Assembly (NCBI GenBank): GCA_944390685.1
Contig: CALXQL010000007.1
Span: 14,507 to 78,506 of the forward strand
Length of the DNA: 64,000 nucleotides
From: an uncultured Alphaproteobacteria bacterium
GTDB taxonomy: Bacteria > Pseudomonadota > Alphaproteobacteria > Rs-D84 > CACZYB01
Reading direction: 5' to 3'
The notes beneath the pieces were generated by a model. It saw only the letters and a list, made by a program, of their open reading frames with translations. It did no database searches and was not told the origin of the DNA. The translations under genes were made by a program, and so were the position numbers. Shown in pieces: positions 4,649 to 17,905 of this stretch (position 1 is its first letter; every line of letters starts with the position of its first letter).

Positions 4649-5833
4649 TTAATTATTTCTTTTTGCTCCAAAAGCCCCTTGAAATTGTAAATTATAATCA
4701 TCAGCAGAAGGGCTATTTTCCAACTTATAATCATCTTTTTTATTAGTATCTATAAAATTGATACCTCCAACAGCCTCTATAACTTTTTGTGTTGTTGGTT
4801 CATAATAATAATTTATAGAAAAATTATTGTTAATTATGTTACCATCTCTATCTTTAATAATGTTTTCACTATTAGGGTGTAAAATATCTTTATATTCACT
4901 ATCTGTATTTAATTTATATAAAAATGCATTATTACCAGAGCTTTCTCCTTTTGGATTATCAAATTTTAAATTTACAATATCATTACTCTCTTGTATAGCA
5001 GTTACATCATACCAATTATCAAATTTCATATTTAATGTAGATATTGGATTTCCATTATTCCTTTGAAAAGTTAAAGTAGCATTTCCATCAAGTTTTCTTG
5101 TTGTTTCTATCATTCTGTTTTCAGTAGTAGAAAAACCAGTCCCTGAAACATAACCTAACGCTTTACCAGTAAAAGCAATTTTATCCGTTTCTATTTTAGT
5201 TGTATCTATTTTTCTTTGATCATACCCACCAAAGAAACCAACAGAAAATTCTTCTGCTTCCAAATTTGTAGAACATATTCCATTATAACATTGAACCTTA
5301 TTACCTTCATTATCATATTCAAATTCCACAGTTTTAGAATCCAAAATACCAAAATCTGAATAAGTTAAATCTAATTCAATTCCCTTTGAAATAAATTTCC
5401 CTTCTTCTTCTATATAATGAGAGCCACCTTCACTTTTCCGTAATGATTTAAATGTATTGGAATCACCATCTCTTTCAAAAGATAATTGTTCATCTGGTAA
5501 TGAAAAAGCAATAATTTTACCATTTTTATCAACATCAAATTTTGCCTTTATTAAACTACCTTCTTCATATGATATGAGTTCTACATCATCTATATAAGCA
5601 TATTCATTTTTTGTTGTATTATTTGCAAATCTAACTTTTGAAGTTTCAGGATTTGATATCATTATTGCACTTGCAAGTGATGTAACTTGTTTATTACTAT
5701 TTTTAATTTCATCTGAAATTTCTATTGGTAAATTGATGTTTGGAAGACTACTTCCTCCTACTATACTTCCACCACCACCACAAGCAGTTAATAAAATTAA
5801 AGAAGATATAGATATTTTTAAATTGTTTTTCAT
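4649..5833 (-). CDS. Surface lipoprotein with a TbpB/fHbp-like C-terminal beta-barrel domain
   Basis: Lipobox LLTAC followed by GGGGS. The C-terminus (FTGKALGYVSG...FQGAFGAKRNN) resembles the TbpB C-lobe / lipoprotein_5 family. Paralog of 60295..61188. Confidence 0.5.
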   Translation of the reverse strand: MKNNLKISISSLILLTACGGGGSIVGGSSLPNINLPIEISDEIKNSNKQVTSLASAIMISNPETSKVRFANNTTKNEYAYIDDVELISYEEGSLIKAKFDVDKNGKIIAFSLPDEQLSFERDGDSNTFKSLRKSEGGSHYIEEEGKFISKGIELDLTYSDFGILDSKTVEFEYDNEGNKVQCYNGICSTNLEAEEFSVGFFGGYDQRKIDTTKIETDKIAFTGKALGYVSGTGFSTTENRMIETTRKLDGNATLTFQRNNGNPISTLNMKFDNWYDVTAIQESNDIVNLKFDNPKGESSGNNAFLYKLNTDSEYKDILHPNSENIIKDRDGNIINNNFSINYYYEPTTQKVIEAVGGINFIDTNKKDDYKLENSPSADDYNLQFQGAFGAKRNN

Positions 5834-6022
5834 GGTGTTTCTTTCATATTGTGTTTTATTGATAAATTTAATGTATATAAATATATATTATTGATAAATT
5901 GGATTTAACCCAAATCAGGATTGATGTTTATCATTACTTTATTTTAATTTTTTATTATAATAAATGATATTATCAAAACAAATAGAGACAATAATTATAA
6001 ACAGATAGATTATTAAACAAAA

Positions 6023-6050
6023 AAGCCCCAAATGCGGGGGCTTTAAATTT
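6023..6050 (-). terminator. Hairpin terminator immediately downstream (minus strand) of the tRNA 3'-half remnant
   Basis: AAGCCCC-AAATGCG-GGGGCTT stem-loop followed by T-runs on both strands. Confidence 0.4.
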
Positions 6051-6096
6051 TGGTGGCGCCTCCCAGACTCGAACTGGGGACCTGCGGATTATGATT
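6051..6096 (-). pseudogene. 3' half (anticodon loop to CCA) of a split tRNA(CAU) gene. Left junction of the island.
   Basis: The minus strand reads ATCATAATCCGCAGGTCCCCAGTTCGAGTCTGGGAGGCGCCACCA. This equals positions 32-76 of the intact tRNA at 7930..8006 with one change (G66 to A). Confidence 0.8.
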
Positions 6097-6212
6097 ACCT
6101 GCATAGACCTCGCAGAAAATCAATAACAATCACCAAACATAACTCCCGATTAGACTCTTAATTTTCTATTTATCGATATTGATTATCCCCTGTTATTATA
6201 TGGGCATATCGA

Positions 6213-6231
6213 TGTCAAAAAATTGTCAAAA
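6213..6231 (-). promoter_or_regulatory. Tandem TTTTGACA motif pair (11-bp spacing), about 115 bp inside the left island end
   Basis: The plus strand reads TGTCAAAAAATTGTCAAAA. Same motif as 7769..7790 and 17614..17634. Candidate integrase arm-type or regulator binding sites. Confidence 0.4.
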
Positions 6232-6780
6232 TTATTCGTTTAATTCAGGTAAACCTATCCTTGATAAATAATGAGAAAAACGTATTGATAAATTTTCTCG
6301 AAAAAGTTCATTTATTGTTGTTAAATATTTATCATTGTATTGTTTTTTTACATCATTATATGGAATTGTGTAATATATCTTAAAATCAATAATTAATTCA
6401 TTTAACGATTTTTCTCTATCTTCTTTTAACAAAAAATAACGTTCATCTTTATTTTGCTGAATTTTTTTATATTGTTCGCTATTTATACGAGTATGTTTTA
6501 CATTAAGATAAAATCCCTCTCTGATTTCTTCTGTTAAAAAGGCTGGTAGAATCATGATATTTGGTAAATATTGATGACAACTTTGTTTATCATCTAATTT
6601 ATTGTCTTTACATTGGCATAAATCACAATCTTGAGATAATACTACAACATATGGTAAATAAGCCTCTTTTAGTTTTTCACCTTCTAAATATATAATTTTA
6701 AAATTTTGCAATATGTCTCCCTGACATATTCTTTCTTTATCATGACTAACGTAAAATGAATTTATATTACTGTTAAACAT
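6232..6780 (-). CDS. Hypothetical protein, 182 aa. Last gene of the three-gene operon at the left island end.
   Basis: ORF with cysteine/aspartate-rich segment VVVLSQDCDLCQCKD. No family recognised. Confidence 0.5.
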   Translation of the reverse strand: MFNSNINSFYVSHDKERICQGDILQNFKIIYLEGEKLKEAYLPYVVVLSQDCDLCQCKDNKLDDKQSCHQYLPNIMILPAFLTEEIREGFYLNVKHTRINSEQYKKIQQNKDERYFLLKEDREKSLNELIIDFKIYYTIPYNDVKKQYNDKYLTTINELFRENLSIRFSHYLSRIGLPELNE

Positions 6781-6782
6781 TA

Positions 6783-6986
6783 TTAATCTTTTCTTAAAAT
6801 TTTGAAAATATTTTCACATAATACTTGTTCAGAAAAAACATTTCTTTTATAACTACCATCGGATATGGAAGAATCGTAATAATCTTTAATAAAATTAAAT
6901 TCTTTTTCTTCAGAAATTATTATATCATTACATTTTATACCACTATTTTCTTTTGTAGAAAATTGATTTTCTAGAATTTTATCCAT
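6783..6986 (-). CDS. Hypothetical small protein, 67 aa. Middle gene of the operon.
   Basis: Tightly packed between its neighbours: 2-nt gap on one side and an 8-nt overlap on the other. Confidence 0.4.
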   Translation of the reverse strand: MDKILENQFSTKENSGIKCNDIIISEEKEFNFIKDYYDSSISDGSYKRNVFSEQVLCENIFKILRKD

Positions 6987-7695
6987 TTAATTTACTCCTT
7001 AAATCATCTGTAATACTCTTTTCAAATAAATCTTGAATAATTCCATGAAAATTATTCAAAAGAGCAATTATAGTTTTTTCCGATGGAAAATCCTTTGTTG
7101 AAACATCTATATCTAGTATAAAATCATTTTTCTTAATTAATGGAGCAGGATAATTTGGATTATTTATTCCAAAATTGAAAATAACATTTGAATCATCAGA
7201 TTTAAATGACAACTGTTCCATATATCTATTTAAAGATAAATTTTTTAAACTCTCAGCAAAATTATAAATTGAAAATAAATTAGTATCTATATAACCTATC
7301 TTACTAATATTATCTATAGGAATATTATTTATAAAGCGCAATCCTAATCTTTTATATGAAATATCATTTTTATAAAGTTCTTCAAATTTTCCAAATATAC
7401 GATTAAAAATATCCAAAAAATCTTCAAATGTAGTATATTTTTTTAATTCAAAAATTAAGGAATTGCATGATAATGAAATTTTTAATTTTTCTTTTTCAAA
7501 TTCAAAAATATTGATTAAAGAGAAACCATTTTCTGATGGAATTAATATTTTATTTTTATTGTTATTATAATCTAACAAATCTTTTACAAATTCTTCTTTT
7601 ACATCACTTTTCAAAGAATTGATTTCAGAAAAATCCAATCTACAAATAACATTAGTTATATAATTGTTATTATATCTGATACCATCATAACTCAT
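6979..7695 (-). CDS. Hypothetical protein, 238 aa, possibly TIGR04255-like. First gene of the operon.
   Basis: N-terminal ITNVICRLDFSEI and internal RLGLRFINNI resemble my recollection of the TIGR04255 family pattern. Not verified. Confidence 0.45.
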   Translation of the reverse strand: MSYDGIRYNNNYITNVICRLDFSEINSLKSDVKEEFVKDLLDYNNNKNKILIPSENGFSLINIFEFEKEKLKISLSCNSLIFELKKYTTFEDFLDIFNRIFGKFEELYKNDISYKRLGLRFINNIPIDNISKIGYIDTNLFSIYNFAESLKNLSLNRYMEQLSFKSDDSNVIFNFGINNPNYPAPLIKKNDFILDIDVSTKDFPSEKTIIALLNNFHGIIQDLFEKSITDDLRSKLNG

Positions 7696-7768
7696 TTTTG
7701 TTTTTCCTATATAGAAGTTAAAGCCTCACATCTAAATGTTATCATAATTTAATATCTTTGCAATCGTT

Positions 7769-7790
7769 TTTTGACATTATTTTTGACACT
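7769..7790 (+). promoter_or_regulatory. Tandem TTTTGACA(T/C) motif pair (12-bp spacing)
   Basis: TTTTGACATTATTTTTGACACT, between the minus-strand operon start and the island tRNA. Confidence 0.4.
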
Positions 7791-7888
7791 AATTTATTTT
7801 TAGGGTGATTTCGTGTTAGAAAAAAGTTTTGAAAATCCCAAAAATTTGCTAAAAATTATGAATTTTTCTTAAAATTTATTGAAACTTG

Positions 7889-7917: not shown

Positions 7918-7929
7918 GAAACAATCTTG

Positions 7930-8006
7930 GGCGCCCTAGCTCAGTTGGTTAGAGCGACGGAATCATAATCCGCAGGTCCCCAGTTCGAGTCTGGGGGGCG
8001 CCACCA
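7930..8006 (+). tRNA. tRNA(CAU): elongator Met or lysidine-type Ile2, 77 nt with encoded CCA
   Basis: Cloverleaf folded by hand. Acceptor GGCGCCC/GGGCGCC, D-stem GCTC/GAGC, anticodon loop ATCATAA (anticodon CAT), T-loop TTCGAGT, discriminator A, then CCA. G1:C72 makes it not an initiator. The acceptor stem resembles E. coli Ile2. Confidence 0.85.
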
Positions 8007-8084
8007 AAAATCAAAAATATATAAATCGCTTGAAATGTTTCTGAATTTTGTGTTAACATATACAAAGTAAGGAAAGGATTTTTT

Positions 8085-10472
8085 ATGTCAGAAAGAATTA
8101 CAGAAAATTTAGTATTAAAGGAGATGGATATATCTCTTGGTAAAAATGATTTTGGATTTGTTTTCGATCAGGGAGACACTTTATCAATAACAAAAATTAC
8201 TAATTTACTTAAAAAGGCTGGTGGCAAACCAAAATTTTGTCCTTTAAATGATTTTAATCAAGGTGAACCTGGTAAGGCTCAACCAGAGTATATAATCACT
8301 TTTAATAAAGACTTAAATCTTATTATTGTTGTAGAATGTAAAAAGACAATAAAATATCATGCATCTCAAAATTTGGATATGCCAAAAGATTATGCTGTTG
8401 ATGGCGCTCTTTATTATGCAAAATTTTTAAAAGAAGAATTTAATGTAATAGCTTTAGGTGTTAGTGGAACAAAAAAAGAGAATATGAAAGTTTCTACTTT
8501 TTATTGGCCAAAAGGTATGGAAAAATATATAGATTTACCTAGAGGTAAAGACGTTCTTTATACCCCTGAAAATTACATTAATTTAATTCAAGGAAAAAAA
8601 GTTGAAAAAGCAATTTCTATTGAAGATATTCAAAAATTAGCTCTTACTATGCATGAAAATTTAAGAGCATTAAAAATGACAGAACGAGCAAAACCTGTTT
8701 TTATTGCTGGTATCTTAATTGCTCTTAAAAATGAAGCTTTTATTAGTGATTATAGAAAATTAACATCTTTTACAGCGTTGTTAAATATGTTGCAACAAGC
8801 TATTAATGAAGAATTGGTTAATAGTGATATACGCCCTGAAAAGATTTCTGATATAAAAACACATTTCCAAATGATTGGAAAAAATAGTAAACTAAAAGAG
8901 ATTCCTTTATCTCATGATAATTCATTACTTTGGTATGTTGAACAATTAGAAACAAAAATTAAACCAATGATGGATTATTCGTCTGAGGCTGTTGACGCAC
9001 TTGGGATTTTTTATCATGAATTTGTTAAATATAGTGGTGGCGATGGTAGTGGTTTAGGTATAGTTTTAACACCTCAGCATTTGACTGAATTTATGGCTGA
9101 TTTAGCAGAAATTAATAAATCTAGTAAGGTTGTAGATATCTGTTGTGGTTCAGGTGCCTTTTTGGTTACATCTATGGTGAAGATGTTTAAAGGGGCAACC
9201 CAACAAGAAATTAATAAAATTAGAAAAGAAGCTTTGTATGGCGTCGAAAGTGATGATGATATTTATACATTAGCCATCGCAAATATGATTGTTCGTGGAG
9301 ATGGAAAATCCAATATCTTTTATGGAGATTGCTTTAATAAAGATATTATCAATAATCTAAAAGAAAAAAAGATAAACATAGGATTGATAAACCCACCATA
9401 TTCTCAAAAAGACCATTGTGAATTAGAATTTGTTGAAAATATGTTGGATATATTAGTGACAGGAGGAACTGGTGTTATAGTTGTTCCAATGAGTTGTGCA
9501 ATTGGAACTAAATTTAAAGATGTAAGGGAAAGGCTATTTAAGAAACATACTTTAAAAGCAGTTTTTTCTATGCCTGATGACATTTTTTATGCAAATAATG
9601 CTAGTACAAATGTTTGTGTAATGGTATGGGAGGCTCATAAACCTCATGATAGTACTCAAAATACATTCTTTGGTTATTATAAACATGATGGTTTTGTAAA
9701 AGCAAAAAAACTTGGCAGAATTGATAAATTTAACAAATGGGAAAACATTAAAAAAGAATGGCTTTCATTATATAGGGAGAGAGATATTAAAGATGGTTTC
9801 ACTGCAAAGAAGCCTGTAAAATGGAACGATGAGTGGTTGTGCGAAGCCTATATGGAAACAGACTATTCAACGCTAAAGAAAGCTGATTTTGAAAAAACTA
9901 TAAAGAATTATCTTTCATATTTAGTCTTAACTGACCAGTACAATTTATATAAAAAAATACCTGAAAAAAGGATAAAAGAGTCCAATCCTTGTGAATTAAC
10001 GAATATAGATACTTGGCAAAAATTCGAGCTGAAACGTTTATTTGAGGTCAAAGGTACAAAAACAACGAAATTGGATGATTTAAATCTTTCTGGAATCGGG
10101 AAGTATCCATATGTTACGACACAGTCTGTTAATAATGGTGTTGCTGGATATTACAACTTGTTTACAGAAAAAGGAAATGTATTAACTGCAGATAGTGCGG
10201 TTGTTGGATTTTGTTCTTATCAAGAAAATGATTTTTCTGCTAGTGATCACGTAGAAAAATTACTTCCAAAATTTGAAATGAATAAGTATGTTGCCATGTT
10301 TTTGACGACAATTATTAATCTTGAAAATTATCGGTATAGCTATGGCCGAAAATTTAATCAGACAAAAATTAAAGATACAATTATAAAGTTACCAGTAGAT
10401 TCTCAAGGTAGTCCTGATTGGTTATTTATGGAAAATTATATTAAATCTTTACCGTATTCCGATTTAATTTAG
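8085..10472 (+). CDS. Single-polypeptide type IIG/IIL-like restriction-modification enzyme: N-terminal PD-(D/E)xK-like nuclease region, gamma-class N6-adenine methyltransferase, C-terminal target-recognition domain
   Basis: 795 aa. Motif I VVDICCGSGAFLV and motif IV LINPPYS. The N-terminus PEYIITF...IIVVECKK is nuclease-like. C-terminal about 200 aa are TRD-like. Confidence 0.65.
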   Translation: MSERITENLVLKEMDISLGKNDFGFVFDQGDTLSITKITNLLKKAGGKPKFCPLNDFNQGEPGKAQPEYIITFNKDLNLIIVVECKKTIKYHASQNLDMPKDYAVDGALYYAKFLKEEFNVIALGVSGTKKENMKVSTFYWPKGMEKYIDLPRGKDVLYTPENYINLIQGKKVEKAISIEDIQKLALTMHENLRALKMTERAKPVFIAGILIALKNEAFISDYRKLTSFTALLNMLQQAINEELVNSDIRPEKISDIKTHFQMIGKNSKLKEIPLSHDNSLLWYVEQLETKIKPMMDYSSEAVDALGIFYHEFVKYSGGDGSGLGIVLTPQHLTEFMADLAEINKSSKVVDICCGSGAFLVTSMVKMFKGATQQEINKIRKEALYGVESDDDIYTLAIANMIVRGDGKSNIFYGDCFNKDIINNLKEKKINIGLINPPYSQKDHCELEFVENMLDILVTGGTGVIVVPMSCAIGTKFKDVRERLFKKHTLKAVFSMPDDIFYANNASTNVCVMVWEAHKPHDSTQNTFFGYYKHDGFVKAKKLGRIDKFNKWENIKKEWLSLYRERDIKDGFTAKKPVKWNDEWLCEAYMETDYSTLKKADFEKTIKNYLSYLVLTDQYNLYKKIPEKRIKESNPCELTNIDTWQKFELKRLFEVKGTKTTKLDDLNLSGIGKYPYVTTQSVNNGVAGYYNLFTEKGNVLTADSAVVGFCSYQENDFSASDHVEKLLPKFEMNKYVAMFLTTIINLENYRYSYGRKFNQTKIKDTIIKLPVDSQGSPDWLFMENYIKSLPYSDLI

Positions 10473-10498
10473 AAAATACTCAAAAGAGATAAATAAAA

Positions 10499-11266
10499 AT
10501 GTTCAATTATAATGAATTACTTAAATCTATCTTTCCAATAGGACTTACAAGCAAAAACGATATTGAAAATATAAAAGATTTTAATGGAACTGCATTTTTA
10601 GTTAATTGTTCAGGTTTCCTTTCTGTTATAACAGCATATCATTGCGTGTCTAGTATTGCAAAATATCGTTTCAAAGTGACATCTGAAGATAATATCACAA
10701 CCGATATGATAAAAAAGGTTTTAGAAGATAATATTAATTTTGGATATATAAAATCAAATAAACAAATTTATAGCATTCCTATTAGTAATATTTTTAGAGG
10801 GATTTCTGAGGTCGGTAATAATATTGATACCATCATTTGCAAAGTTAATGAAACTGACATGATAAAAAATAATAATACTTCTCTTTCTGATTTAAAAGCA
10901 TTAGAAATTTCTACTAATAAGCTTATTATTGGTAATTATTATGAATTTTATGGTTTTCCTAATATTAATAGAGATAAAATTAATAAAATAATATATATGG
11001 ATAGTAGAAAATTAAAGTTAATTAAATTAGAGCCAAAAGAAGATTATGGAAATGCTGTTTATGGATATTTAGATATAACTCATACTAAAGATACTCTTAA
11101 AACAATTGAAGGATTTAGTGGTTCCCCATTGTTTGATAGTACGGGTAAAATTGTTGGAATATTAGAAGAAATAAATGAAAATGATAAACATATAAGATTT
11201 ATAGCTCTAGATACTATAATTTATTTTATGACAAATATAATTAAAAATAATTTTCACATATTTTAG
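10499..11266 (+). CDS. Cytoplasmic trypsin-like (S1 family) serine peptidase
   Basis: His motif ITAYHCVSS and Ser motif GFSGSPLF. No signal peptide. It starts 26 nt after the R-M gene stop on the same strand. Confidence 0.6.
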   Translation: MFNYNELLKSIFPIGLTSKNDIENIKDFNGTAFLVNCSGFLSVITAYHCVSSIAKYRFKVTSEDNITTDMIKKVLEDNINFGYIKSNKQIYSIPISNIFRGISEVGNNIDTIICKVNETDMIKNNNTSLSDLKALEISTNKLIIGNYYEFYGFPNINRDKINKIIYMDSRKLKLIKLEPKEDYGNAVYGYLDITHTKDTLKTIEGFSGSPLFDSTGKIVGILEEINENDKHIRFIALDTIIYFMTNIIKNNFHIF

Positions 11267-11278
11267 TTTTTAATAGAA

Positions 11279-11761
11279 TTAAAATAAATTATCTATATTA
11301 TCTAATATATTATCAGAAATTTCTATTATTTTAATAATATCTGTACAGATATTTAATTTTGGAGGTGTATCATTGTAATTATGTGCCAATCCATGCCTAA
11401 AATTTAAAAAATCTTTGAAAATACTAATATCATAATTTTCTATACCATCATCTAAAAATGATAATTTTTCTTTAGAAATATTAAAACCTTTTAATAGAGA
11501 TTTTAAATCCTCTGGTTTTAAACCTCTATGTAATTTAGGCATTTTCTCAAAATAAGAATTTATGTAATCATTATCAGTTTTTAATTTTTCTTTTAAAATA
11601 TTTGTTAATTGTGTTTCTATATCACTATATAATACAAGAACAATATATTGGTTAACAATACTTTTAGCAAAATCAGTATCTGCCTCTTTTGGCAACTTAT
11701 CTAAAATTCCGCTTTTTATCTGCTTATATATACTATTTGTTTTCTTTAAATATTTAATCAT
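11279..11761 (-). CDS. HEPN-like small protein, 160 aa
   Basis: R-x4-H motif in FLNFRHGLAHNY. Its start overlaps the stop of the upstream DUF262 gene (ATGA), which suggests translational coupling. Confidence 0.45.
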   Translation of the reverse strand: MIKYLKKTNSIYKQIKSGILDKLPKEADTDFAKSIVNQYIVLVLYSDIETQLTNILKEKLKTDNDYINSYFEKMPKLHRGLKPEDLKSLLKGFNISKEKLSFLDDGIENYDISIFKDFLNFRHGLAHNYNDTPPKLNICTDIIKIIEISDNILDNIDNLF

Positions 11762-12827
11762 TATTTAATACTGAATATGCTATTTTTAACCTATCGTTAA
11801 CATTTTTTGTAGAAATAGTTCCTTGTTGTGCTTCATATATTTTTCTGTAATCTTCGTTATTTTTCAATATTTCATAACGTTCTTTTAAATTTGTAATACT
11901 TGTATCAGAAAGCATTAAAGCAGTAATAACAGAATCTAACAACACATAATTAGGGCGAGTATAAATAGTAAAAGGTTTTTCTCCCAATTCTCTAATTAAT
12001 AAATCGGCTACAGACTTAAATTTTTCACAAAATTCATCAATATTTTTATTTTTATTATTATGACAAAAGATATTTAAAAAAGGCTTCATACTAGTTTTGT
12101 ATGTATTAAGCACCTGTTCTTCTTTATTCCAATCATAATAGAAAGCAACCAGTCTCAACAAAAGTTCAACATCTGTATATCTATTATCACAACTATCCTT
12201 ACCTAAAATCTTACGCCAGTTTGAATCTTTATTTAAATCTTCTAAACTTTTTATTAAAGTTCCGTAATTTATTGCTCTTCTAATTTCCATATTATTTAAA
12301 TTTTGCCCACCTGTATTTAATCTTTCAAATACTCCATATAATACTTGAATATCAGAAGAATCTATTTGTCTTATCATACATGCGGATAATTGAGCTGATT
12401 TTAATTTTTCTTGAAAATTTTTAGGTAATAAGGAAAAAGTTTTTCCAATAAATTTTTCATTTACATCAACTAATTTGAAATTATCTTCTAAAAATTCATT
12501 AATGGTAGAAATACGTTGATATCCATCAACTATTAAATAAGTTTCTTTCTCTACAATTTTATATAAAAATACTGGAGGAATTGGGTAATCAAACAATAAT
12601 GATTCTATGAAACGACTTTTACCTCGTTGATTCCAAACTTTATTTCTTTGAAAATCAGGTTTATAAAATATTTTTTCTTTAAATCTTCTATTGTATTCTT
12701 CTAAAGAAAAACTTGCTGGATATGTTATTATTTCTGAAGCAATTTTATCTATTTCTTCTGAAGTATGTTCTATTTCTTCTATATCAATATCTTCTTCATT
12801 TAAATTTTCTTTGATTGAGTTTTCCAT
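11754..12827 (-). CDS. DUF262 (ParB-like/GmrSD N-terminal domain) protein, 357 aa
   Basis: DGQQR-type motif IVDGYQRIST and downstream FERLNTGGQNL motif. No fused DUF1524/HNH domain. Confidence 0.65.
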   Translation of the reverse strand: MENSIKENLNEEDIDIEEIEHTSEEIDKIASEIITYPASFSLEEYNRRFKEKIFYKPDFQRNKVWNQRGKSRFIESLLFDYPIPPVFLYKIVEKETYLIVDGYQRISTINEFLEDNFKLVDVNEKFIGKTFSLLPKNFQEKLKSAQLSACMIRQIDSSDIQVLYGVFERLNTGGQNLNNMEIRRAINYGTLIKSLEDLNKDSNWRKILGKDSCDNRYTDVELLLRLVAFYYDWNKEEQVLNTYKTSMKPFLNIFCHNNKNKNIDEFCEKFKSVADLLIRELGEKPFTIYTRPNYVLLDSVITALMLSDTSITNLKERYEILKNNEDYRKIYEAQQGTISTKNVNDRLKIAYSVLNND

Positions 12828-16362: not shown

Positions 16363-17454
16363 CTACAAGTCTTTATTATCTATATTGATAAAATTATCAA
16401 CCATATTTGCAACAACAGATTTCTTATGTTCATTTGAAAGATGGGCATATCTTTTAACCATTTGTAACGATTTATGACCTAATACATCAGCAATCTCAGA
16501 AGCGCTTGCCCCATTCATTGCTAAATAACTTGCACAGGTATGACGTAAATCGTGAAATCTAAAATTCTCTATATTTGATTGATTTAATGCTTTATACCAT
16601 GATTTATCAAGATTTATTGGAACATTGCCTTTTCTGTTAGGAAAAAGATATTTAGATTGTGTTTTTTCTTTCATATCTTTTAACATATCACAGATTTTAC
16701 CATACAAAGGTAAAGTCCTTCTTTCTCCATTTTTAGTATCTTCCAATGTTGCCTGTGATTTATCCAAATCAACATCTTTCCATTGTAAAGTAAGAATTTC
16801 ATTCTTTCTTGCACCTGTTGTTAATGCTAAAAGAATAATAGGATAAAGATATTGATTTTCTGAACGTTTAGCATTTTCAAACAAAGCCTCTCGTTCTTCG
16901 TTTGTAAGATAACGAACGACACCTTTTGGTTGTGGAAACTTTTTTATATTTGCGACGGGATTTTTATCAATCCATTGTAATTCTTTTACAGCATAAGTAT
17001 ATAACGCACTCAATGCTGCAATATAGTGATTTAAAGTAGATTTTGTTTTTGCCTTATTATGTGGTGTCGGAATTTCTGCAATTTTGTTAATAGTATCTCT
17101 GATAGTTTTTACATTAATTCTGCTTAGTAAATAATTACCAATCAAGTCTTTCCAAACCTGTAAAAGATGAGGTACTTTTTGTCCCTTATTAATATAAACA
17201 CTAGAATTTTTACCTTTATTCGGTAAAACGTATTCTGAATAATAATCTATAAGTTCAGCCAAAGTATGCTTTGTTGCCTCTTGTTTATCATCATATTCGC
17301 CAAGTTTTATTTTGGTTTCAATCTTGTTTGCCCATTCCTCAGCCATTCTTTTTAATGGAAAACTTTTCATTACTGATGGAGTTCCCTTAATCCTTACTCT
17401 TGCATACCAAACTGTTTTACCTTTATTGTTTACTCTTGAATTAATTGTTGCCAT
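16363..17454 (-). CDS. int: Tyrosine recombinase / phage-type integrase
   Basis: 363 aa. The C-terminal catalytic region HDLRHTCASYLAMNGASASEIADVLGHKSLQMVKRYAHL carries the R..H..R..Y signature. It sits about 350 bp from the right attachment site. Confidence 0.9.
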   Translation of the reverse strand: MATINSRVNNKGKTVWYARVRIKGTPSVMKSFPLKRMAEEWANKIETKIKLGEYDDKQEATKHTLAELIDYYSEYVLPNKGKNSSVYINKGQKVPHLLQVWKDLIGNYLLSRINVKTIRDTINKIAEIPTPHNKAKTKSTLNHYIAALSALYTYAVKELQWIDKNPVANIKKFPQPKGVVRYLTNEEREALFENAKRSENQYLYPIILLALTTGARKNEILTLQWKDVDLDKSQATLEDTKNGERRTLPLYGKICDMLKDMKEKTQSKYLFPNRKGNVPINLDKSWYKALNQSNIENFRFHDLRHTCASYLAMNGASASEIADVLGHKSLQMVKRYAHLSNEHKKSVVANMVDNFINIDNKDL

Positions 17455-17613
17455 TTTAAGTACCTATATCATTTATTTTATATAGTTATATTATATAACA
17501 AAATGGGGTAATGTACACAGTTTTTATAAAGAGATTTATAATCCTTACACCCCTAAAAATAGCATATTGATTTTACTATATTTTTCACAGAAAATGCTTG
17601 AAATTTTAATGAT

Positions 17614-17634
17614 TTTTGACACTATTTTGACACT
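17614..17634 (+). promoter_or_regulatory. Tandem ATTTTGACACT repeat (11-bp spacing) between int and the right island end
   Basis: TTTTGACACTATTTTGACACT. An inverted single copy TGTCAAAAA lies at 17705..17712. Confidence 0.4.
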
Positions 17635-17806
17635 GATTTTATACCATAATTTTAACCCATTTTATTGGTGGTGATTGATACCTGTTTTTAAGTGGAATTA
17701 TTGATGTCAAAAACGAGTCAAAGAATTTAAAATATAGAGATTTTAACCTGTATAAGTTATTAATTTTACTAATAATTTAAAGATTTTGAAGAAGAAAAGC
17801 TCGTGC

Positions 17807-17845
17807 TTATGATTCCGTCGCTCTAACCAACTGAGCTAAGGCGCC
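17807..17845 (-). pseudogene. 5' half (position 1 to anticodon loop) of the split tRNA(CAU) gene. Right junction of the island.
   Basis: The minus strand reads GGCGCCTTAGCTCAGTTGGTTAGAGCGACGGAATCATAA. This equals positions 1-38 of the intact tRNA with one change (C7 to T), then diverges. Confidence 0.8.
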
Positions 17846-17905
17846 AAAGATTTAATAAATATACTATATAACTCACACAAAGTCAATATATTTATTTAAA
17901 TCTCA

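Follow-up and report, generated by a model that had tools for sequence, protein, structure and literature searches.

Among the bacterial restriction-modification (R-M) enzymes, the BcgI-like ones include BcgI (A+B) and BsaXI as well as single-chain forms such as AloI. Prophages, in turn, carry morons or exclusion genes, such as those for HK97 gp15 and for Lit of e14, a prophage-encoded metalloprotease. In the Hachiman, AVAST, Lamassu and DRT defense systems, a trypsin-like protease that is fused to a sensor activates a pro-nuclease of the metallo-beta-lactamase (MBL) fold encoded upstream (Tuck et al. 2025, PMC12799240; also 10.1101/2021.12.02.470933). A different kind of coupling is represented by PrrC-EcoprrI, in which an effector gene unrelated to restriction and modification is tightly linked to an R-M gene, with a proposed guard role for the effector (PMC1484252, PMC3458546); prrC is always linked to R-M genes (PMC3458546). 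Here we analyze a gene pair in a stretch of 64,000 nucleotides (nt) from an uncultured Alphaproteobacteria bacterium (contig CALXQL010000007.1), hereafter the window, in which a BcgI-like R-M gene is followed on the same strand by a gene for a trypsin-like serine protease. Rather than a conserved partner of the R-M enzyme, the protease is probably the product of an independent gene of the moron kind that takes part in the conflict between phage and host.

The R-M gene and the protease gene

The pair consists of the following elements:

8085..10472, + strand: R-M gene, 795 amino acids (aa), ATG start; predicted BcgI-like type IIB/IIG restriction-modification-specificity enzyme in a single chain
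8283..8342, + strand: nuclease motif of the PD-(D/E)xK type, P67-E68...E84-C85-K86 (PE...VVECK, aa 67-86)
8994..9914, + strand: gamma-class N6-adenine methyltransferase domain (Pfam N6_Mtase, aa 304-610, 4e-28)
10008..10445, + strand: single HsdS-type target recognition domain (TRD), or half-S (Pfam Methylase_S, aa 642-787, 1e-16)
10473..10498, + strand: 26-nt spacer; AAGAGA in it weakly resembles a Shine-Dalgarno element
10499..11266, + strand: protease gene, 255 aa, ATG start; predicted free-standing cytoplasmic trypsin-like (PA clan) serine protease

Both open reading frames (ORFs) were recovered at the positions given in an earlier reading of the DNA alone (hereafter the sequence-only reading), on the + strand and 26 nt apart. 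A terminator scan detected no terminator-like hairpin in the spacer, no antisense ORF of at least 60 aa lies opposite either gene, and the only Rfam match near the pair is a tRNA. Judged from the spacing, co-transcription of the two genes is plausible; the promoter scan of this AT-rich DNA yielded 47 sites against 40 expected and hence is uninformative. The two genes differ in GC content, which is 23.2% for the protease gene vs 29.6% for the R-M gene.

The R-M enzyme and the absence of the protease from the loci of its homologs

The sequence-only reading had taken the protease to be genetically coupled to the R-M enzyme, a claim that, as a conserved arrangement, finds no support in the genomic contexts. 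Genomic loci of 80 R-M homologs were checked for the protease within 5 kb, and none contains a member of the protease family (tblastn; family hidden Markov model at E<=10). A close copy of the R-M enzyme (L015) lacks the protease, and the closest non-allelic homologs of the protease (33-37% identity) are encoded in prophage tail modules that contain no R-M gene. These comparisons do not support a conserved two-gene architecture consisting of an R-M enzyme and a protease.

The L015 enzyme, encoded in a gut alphaproteobacterial metagenome-assembled genome (MAG), is especially informative. It shows 92% identity to the window enzyme over 795 aa with 0 gaps and has the same TRD; therefore, the window R-M protein contains no protease-specific insertion. 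At the DNA level, the homology between L015 and the window spans only positions 8052-10474, stopping at the R-M stop codon, and the place taken by the protease in the window is occupied by a tRNA-Pro behind the L015 gene. In general, the closest copies of the R-M gene come from gut MAGs labeled 'uncultured Alphaproteobacteria'; given the mobility of R-M genes, this is weak evidence on the origin of the window, in which no rRNA was detected. In several of these alphaproteobacterial MAGs (L015-L017, L034 and L036), the R-M homologs repeatedly adjoin tRNA genes (Pro, Thr and Gly; in the window, Met), which suggests that islands targeting tRNA genes carry these solitary R-M genes along.

Two R-M architectures are found among the 80 loci, namely a form of ~620 aa and a fused form of ~790 aa. 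Behind the ~620-aa form, there is nearly always an overlapping gene of ~310-340 aa, which was confirmed as Methylase_S in L072; by sequence, this combination can be read as a BcgI-A/B-like arrangement with a specificity (S) subunit that contains two TRDs. The ~790-aa form possesses a single fused TRD, as in the window, and is followed by nothing or by unrelated genes. The genes located 9-50 nt downstream of the fused form on the same strand encode oligopeptidase F, a racemase, VTC, HemN, KilA-N, AbiTii and, twice, GmrSD_N. Because these genes are unrelated and in part belong to the housekeeping category, tight spacing behind a mobile R-M gene is no evidence of an operon. The value of this part of the analysis is mostly negative: tight spacing on the same strand within a defense island gave the false appearance of an operon. 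In two Clostridia/Bacillota MAGs, the gene 12-45 nt after the fused-form R-M gene is of the DUF262/GmrSD_N type (L029:7383-8516 and L042:7404-8414); a DUF262 gene is located less than 1.3 kb from the R-M gene in the window as well, and the pairing of R-M and DUF262 genes recurs in defense islands.

The domain composition proposed in the sequence-only reading, a nuclease and a gamma-class N6A methyltransferase fused to a C-terminal recognition domain, is borne out by the agreement of Pfam, PADLOC and the motifs. The residues E68, E84, C85 and K86 are invariant across 14 diverse homologs, and the methyltransferase domain contains motif I CCGSGAF (aa 353, nt 9141-9161) and motif IV NPPY (aa 436, nt 9390-9401). 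The PADLOC model REase_MTase_IIG aligns with aa 65-612 (2.8e-98), and a weak sequence match links the protein to the solved structure of RM.BsaXI and to type I M subunits. With at least 5968 homologs at E<=1e-10, the 795-aa protein appears from its sequence to be a complete, solitary BcgI-like type IIB/IIG enzyme and a member of a very large, ordinary family. It shares with the BcgI-like enzymes the N-terminal PD-ExK nuclease and gamma N6A methyltransferase in one chain as well as the HsdS-type TRD. In BcgI A/B, as among the ~620-aa relatives, a separate two-TRD S gene follows, whereas the window enzyme fuses one TRD only. Given this single fused TRD, and by analogy with half-size S subunits, the enzyme should act as a homodimer on a symmetric bipartite site. 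The TRD is swapped in the homologs of L016 and L017, and in L001 a different TRD precedes.

A free-standing trypsin-like protease

The assignment of the second gene to the S1-type peptidases, with an intact catalytic signature and a cytoplasmic location, stands. The protein scores just above the Pfam Trypsin_2 threshold (30.3 bits vs a cut-off of 27.6), and the catalytic triad is complete, consisting of H48 (10640-10642), D110 (10826-10828) and S207 (11117-11119). In the family alignment, D110 and S207 are invariant, and H48 is retained in every member that covers this region. An AlphaFold model built with 12 family sequences (pLDDT 87, pTM 0.86) predicts a double beta-barrel trypsin fold; in a Foldseek search against the PDB, the model matched Fusarium trypsin and the staphylococcal proteases Spl, Esp and V8 (E 3e-8 to 1e-7, TM 0.5-0.67), and it also resembles viral proteases of the S39 type. 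No signal-peptide-like or transmembrane segment was found in the protein (maximum 19-residue Kyte-Doolittle value of 1.48), and the possibility that the protease is secreted was rejected for want of a signal peptide.

In comparisons with two close alleles, the ratio of nonsynonymous to synonymous substitution rates (dN/dS) is 0.37-0.48 (dS 0.22-0.33), which implies that the protease gene is under purifying selection and is a selected coding gene. Judging from the conserved triad, the confident model and these dN/dS values, the protease appears to be functional.

Among the PADLOC models, the family shows the greatest affinity to the protease module of LmuA (2e-15, for P0004; family members and loci are denoted here by P and L numbers, respectively), to RT-Protease_XI (1e-8) and to the N-terminus of Avs2. 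The 255-aa protein is the protease domain alone, without a fused sensor or defense enzyme. The family represents a new free-standing variant of a known defense-associated module. In addition, 6 of the 12 family members weakly match the PHROG 'protease' family phrog_9683.

A small, mobile and fast-diverging family

The protease family is extremely small. An exhaustive HMMER pass over 1.84 billion proteins yielded 11 representatives, and a word-indexed protein search retrieved just 3 close members and a few distant ones. No relatives were found in 50,697 GenBank phage records (tblastn with the window protein and P0004 as queries), nor in PLSDB plasmids, IMG/VR or JGI metagenome contigs. The close alleles (75-84% identity) come from gut metagenomes and retain the local synteny. 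Beyond these, the family members are found in diverse surroundings:

P0004, 35% identity to the window protease: prophage tail-tip module, with a DUF1833 gene on one side and NlpC/P60 and GpJ genes on the other; no R-M gene
P0007, 33% identity: related prophage, same slot between the DUF1833 and NlpC/P60 genes; no R-M gene
P0016, distantly related (match to the family profile at E 1e-9): upstream of a GpJ fragment
P0008, 30% identity: behind a nitroreductase gene and convergent with a prophage serine recombinase
P0009, 32% identity: behind a nitroreductase gene, with no phage genes
P0014, 24% identity: alone in a defense island; its neighborhood includes a type I R-M/Fic operon, a Schlafen-type ATPase and a DEAD helicase

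The DUF1833 gene at the slot shared by P0004 and P0007 is minor-tail-like. An R-M gene is absent beside the protease in at least five lineages (P0004, P0007, P0008, P0009 and P0016), adjoins or encloses it in two (the window clade and P0015 of locus L099, discussed below), and lies within 2.5 kb in one (P0014). The circumstance that would have spoken against the sequence-only reading, a complete lack of R-M genes beside the homologs of the protease, is not fully borne out: P0015 resides inside a type IIG gene, and P0014 is located 2.5 kb from the type I R-M operon.

The protease gene stands out by its base composition. In every locus with a flank of at least 750 nt on one side, its GC content is 5-19 points below that of the longer flanks, for example, 27.5% vs 40-48% in L006, 31% vs 40-44% in L095 and 22.6% vs 33-39% in L099. 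This AT-richness relative to the flanks is the signature of a moron-like cassette; the deviant GC content, the absence of the protease from syntenic R-M loci and the location in prophages or islands are all features of a moron or mobile cassette. Like the prophage morons, the protease gene is a lone accessory gene whose base composition departs from that of its surroundings, found in a prophage tail module beside another moron pair, AbiEi/AbiEii; it has no sequence relationship to Lit or HK97 gp15. The AbiEi/AbiEii abortive-infection toxin-antitoxin pair has the tail-tube region on one side and the tape-measure gene on the other (L006:1773-3408; also L007-L009), and the prophage with this pair in L006 is the one that carries the protease cassette. 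P0008 and P0009 are both encoded just after the nitroreductase gene (L095:7058-8762, L097:4539-6297 and L098:4117-6073); the locus of P0008, with the serine recombinase, and that of P0009, without one, look like the occupied and the decayed version of one integration site.

Sequence divergence of the protease far exceeds that of its neighbors. Between the window and L001/L003, DNA identity is 99-100% over the downstream 160-aa and DUF262 genes but 70-90% over the TRD and the protease, and the switch falls at the protease stop codon. In the prophages of L006 and L014, the tail genes are 67-81% identical, whereas the proteases in the same slot share just 37% identity. This excess of divergence implies that the protease is repeatedly replaced or evolves fast, as is expected of a gene of phage-host conflict. 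Recombination has made mosaics of the protease alleles, which also differ substantially at synonymous sites. A diversity-generating retroelement was considered as the source of the variability and discarded: the substitutions are not adenine-specific, the variation is mosaic, and synonymous changes are included. On other gut metagenome contigs, the DUF262/160-aa gene pair is 99-100% identical at the DNA level, and the adjoining protease differs by ~25% in protein sequence.

The protease family appears to be of greater interest than the R-M enzyme: it is a free-standing form of a trypsin-like module that is normally fused to a sensor in defense systems, it is very small and diverges far faster than its neighbors, and it turns up repeatedly in specificity regions that are prone to recombination, both in the tail-tip modules of phages and at the recognition-domain ends of R-M genes.

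Independent cassette or partner of the R-M enzyme

The scenario that we consider probable is that the locus is a ~10-kb defense island of a low-GC gut bacterium made of independent cassettes: a self-sufficient R-M enzyme, a free-standing protease, and a convergent pair of genes for a DUF262 and a HEPN-like protein. The protease gene would have landed, or recombined, beside the variable TRD end of the R-M gene. Most likely, the protease would act alone in this conflict; by analogy with the prophage-encoded Lit protease, it would cut a target of the phage or the host upon infection and thereby cause exclusion or abortive infection, and its substrate-facing surface would diversify under an arms race. 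Should the protease alone exclude phage, it would represent a minimal, one-gene protease defense.

Several observations weigh against this scenario. An R-M or S gene is located directly upstream of the protease in the close relatives L001, L002, L004 and L005, the sole exception being L003, in which only 71 nt of the contig precede the protease gene. Divergence affects the TRD and the protease jointly, as one block. The distantly related P0015 (27% identity) is encoded within a different type IIG R-M gene (L099:3553-7620). Furthermore, only ~9 independent contexts of the family are visible, several of these on short contigs, and no feature of the protease identifies a sensor.

Under a rather unlikely alternative, the protease is a facultative accessory of type IIG R-M enzymes. 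It could be a guard effector that is kept latent by the R-M enzyme and freed when the latter is attacked by an anti-restriction factor of a phage, in the manner of PrrC-EcoprrI, or its proteolysis could serve to activate the nuclease or to turn it over, in the manner of the protease-activated pro-nucleases of Hachiman and AVAST. Such a role is compatible with the 26-nt spacing on the same strand without a terminator, with the co-variation of the TRD and the protease and the sharp edge of this block at the protease stop codon, with the position of P0015 within an unrelated type IIG gene, where it overlaps both pieces, and with the proximity of P0014 to a type I R-M operon. The affinities to LmuA, the reverse transcriptase (RT)-linked protease and Avs likewise point to systems whose nuclease is activated by a trypsin-like protease present as a fusion (PMC12799240), and PrrC provides a precedent for an R-M-linked latent effector (PMC1484252). 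Against it stand the absence of the protease from all 80 loci of R-M homologs and the indel-free, 92%-identical enzyme without the protease, which shows that there is no protease-specific gating insertion. Moreover, the closest non-allelic homologs, in the prophage tail modules, are accompanied by neither an R-M enzyme nor another nuclease, the vicinity of the window pair lacks genes for an MBL nuclease or a sensor domain, and, because R-M genes are the commonest defense genes, adjacency to them in an island is to be expected fairly often. If the protease nonetheless depended on the R-M enzyme, proteolysis would be added to R-M biology.

Comparison with the two types of described systems delineates how far the resemblance goes. 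As in the nuclease-protease pairs of Tuck et al., a trypsin-fold serine protease is encoded directly behind a nuclease gene in a defense context, and the best PADLOC matches are to modules of such systems (LmuA, RT-Protease_XI and the Avs2 N-terminus). However, the upstream nuclease in the window is a PD-ExK R-M fusion rather than an MBL-fold pro-nuclease, the protease is free-standing instead of being fused to a sensor (Avs, LmuA, HamA or RT), the R-M enzyme contains no autoinhibitory insertion (its 795 aa align with L015 with 0 gaps), and the two genes do not form a conserved pair. No MBL domain was detected in any neighbor of the window pair, and no LmuB, STAND or RT genes are present within ~5 kb of the protease. 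Gating of a pro-nuclease by the protease was considered separately and rejected given the lack of any indel between the window enzyme and the protease-less copy in L015. The likeness to PrrC-EcoprrI consists in the tight linkage of a gene of non-R-M function to an R-M gene, which invites the guard-role model; in contrast to prrC, the protease family is usually not linked to R-M genes, and the effector is an RNase regulated by an ABC ATPase in one case and a protease in the other.

A more specific version of the partnership, which is unlikely, holds that the protease family is a mobile module that inserts specifically at the specificity end of type IIG genes and functions together with it, as an R-M-dependent effector (guard) or as a processing or nuclease-regulating protease. 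Two sites are relevant, one downstream of the TRD in the window and the other in L099, where the insertion splits the TRD of an unrelated enzyme. The R-M gene of L099, which is of the PDLC03610 type and would encode ~1,096 aa when intact, is broken within the Type_ISP_C specificity domain, and the two pieces are mutually in frame. The upstream ORF of 873 aa aligns with the PADLOC model PDLC03610, starting at position 2 of the model (E 3.7e-301), and with Type_ISP_C at positions 1-169 of 342; the downstream ORF of 195 aa corresponds to positions 881-1075 of PDLC03610 and 164-341 of Type_ISP_C. The insert of 912 nt is AT-rich, carries the P0015 ORF and provides the C-terminal piece with a start codon. 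The P0015 ORF overlaps the N-terminal piece by 8 nt at its start and the C-terminal piece by 4 nt at its end, and a diverged 29-nt coding repeat ('...NLNME') is present on both sides of the insert. With L099 and the window clade, the specificity end of a type IIG gene is occupied in two independent lineages, which is more than we would expect from chance alone. This combination could reflect a facultative functional link but could also result from hitch-hiking of the cassette at recombination-prone specificity modules, that is, TRDs and tail-tip genes. Were the partnership real, this would be a protease-coupled R-M architecture that has not been previously described.

Quite unlikely is a third possibility, that the protease is phage-derived and serves the phage, in counter-defense or in association with the tail, so that the window copy would be a relic of a decayed or recombined prophage without a role in the host. 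The location of P0004, P0007 and P0016 in or beside tail-tip genes, with the DUF1833-NlpC/P60 slot conserved in two related prophages, is compatible with this possibility, as are the weak matches of half of the family to phrog_9683 and the integrase in the island. However, the protease is far more AT-rich than the surrounding tail genes, as befits a moron rather than a structural gene, and no homolog was found in the GenBank phage records or in IMG/VR. In the window, the gene is intact and under purifying selection, and no phage structural genes are located near it.

Finally, a three-gene system formed by the protease with the convergent DUF262 and HEPN-like genes, suggested by the conservation of all three together in L001-L005 (5/5 close loci), is highly improbable and was rejected, given the convergent orientation, the rise in identity from 70-90% to 99-100% right at the junction, which reveals that the histories are separate, the lack of a homolog of the DUF262 or 160-aa protein near any other member of the protease family, and the description of PD-T4-2 without a protease (PMC10952713).

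The island and the neighboring genes

The surroundings of the R-M and protease genes include the following elements:

7930..8006, + strand: tRNA-Met (CAU), detected by ARAGORN (Rfam tRNA, 64 bits); marks the left side of the island, 78 nt before the R-M start
11279..11761, - strand: 160-aa protein with an RHGLAH (Rx4H) motif; weak match to Pfam HEPN_MAE_28990 (E=0.06)
11754..12827, - strand: DUF262/GmrSD_N ParB-like NTPase, 357 aa (Pfam GmrSD_N 1.8e-22; PADLOC NsnA 1.6e-58, PD-T4-2_A 3.7e-45)
16363..17454, - strand: tyrosine integrase (Pfam Phage_integrase 2.9e-35), at the far end of the island
17807..17852, - strand: inverted 46-nt copy of the 5' flank and 5' half of the tRNA-Met, 96% identical (blastn, 7923-7968 vs 17852-17807)

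The tRNA, the integrase and the tRNA fragment, with the core genes for SspB, NusB and LepA resuming past the inverted tRNA copy, delineate an integrative island of ~10 kb. The inverted copy is the probable right-hand scar of the island. Such islands are usually bordered by a direct repeat of the tRNA 3' end, but no repeat of this kind, from which the attachment (att) sites could be placed, was found; the inverted copy of the 5' half may instead stem from an inversion or from disruption of a second tRNA-Met gene. The motif TTTTTGACA..TTTTGACACT recurs at 7768-7795 and 17613-17639.

The 160-aa gene is convergent to the protease gene, with the stop codons 12 nt apart, and overlaps the upstream DUF262 gene by 8 nt. 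Its product is probably HEPN-like, judging from the motif, and the two genes are a probable defense pair similar to PD-T4-2, which is a DUF262 and HEPN system (PMC10952713): the DUF262 assignment is clear, whereas the partner carries the Rx4H motif with only the weak HEPN match. The 357-aa protein also matches NsnA of Menshen, but neither the NsnB ATPase nor NsnC is encoded here, and because NsnB is missing, the pair fits PD-T4-2 better than Menshen.

Upstream of the tRNA, four AT-rich genes encoding proteins of 394, 182, 67 and 238 aa are located on the - strand (4649-7695). The 238-aa protein belongs to the TIGR04255 family, which shows a sporadic distribution (1.2e-24), and the 182-aa protein matches phrog_4575, a family of unknown function. 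This four-gene block may be a second accessory or defense cassette.

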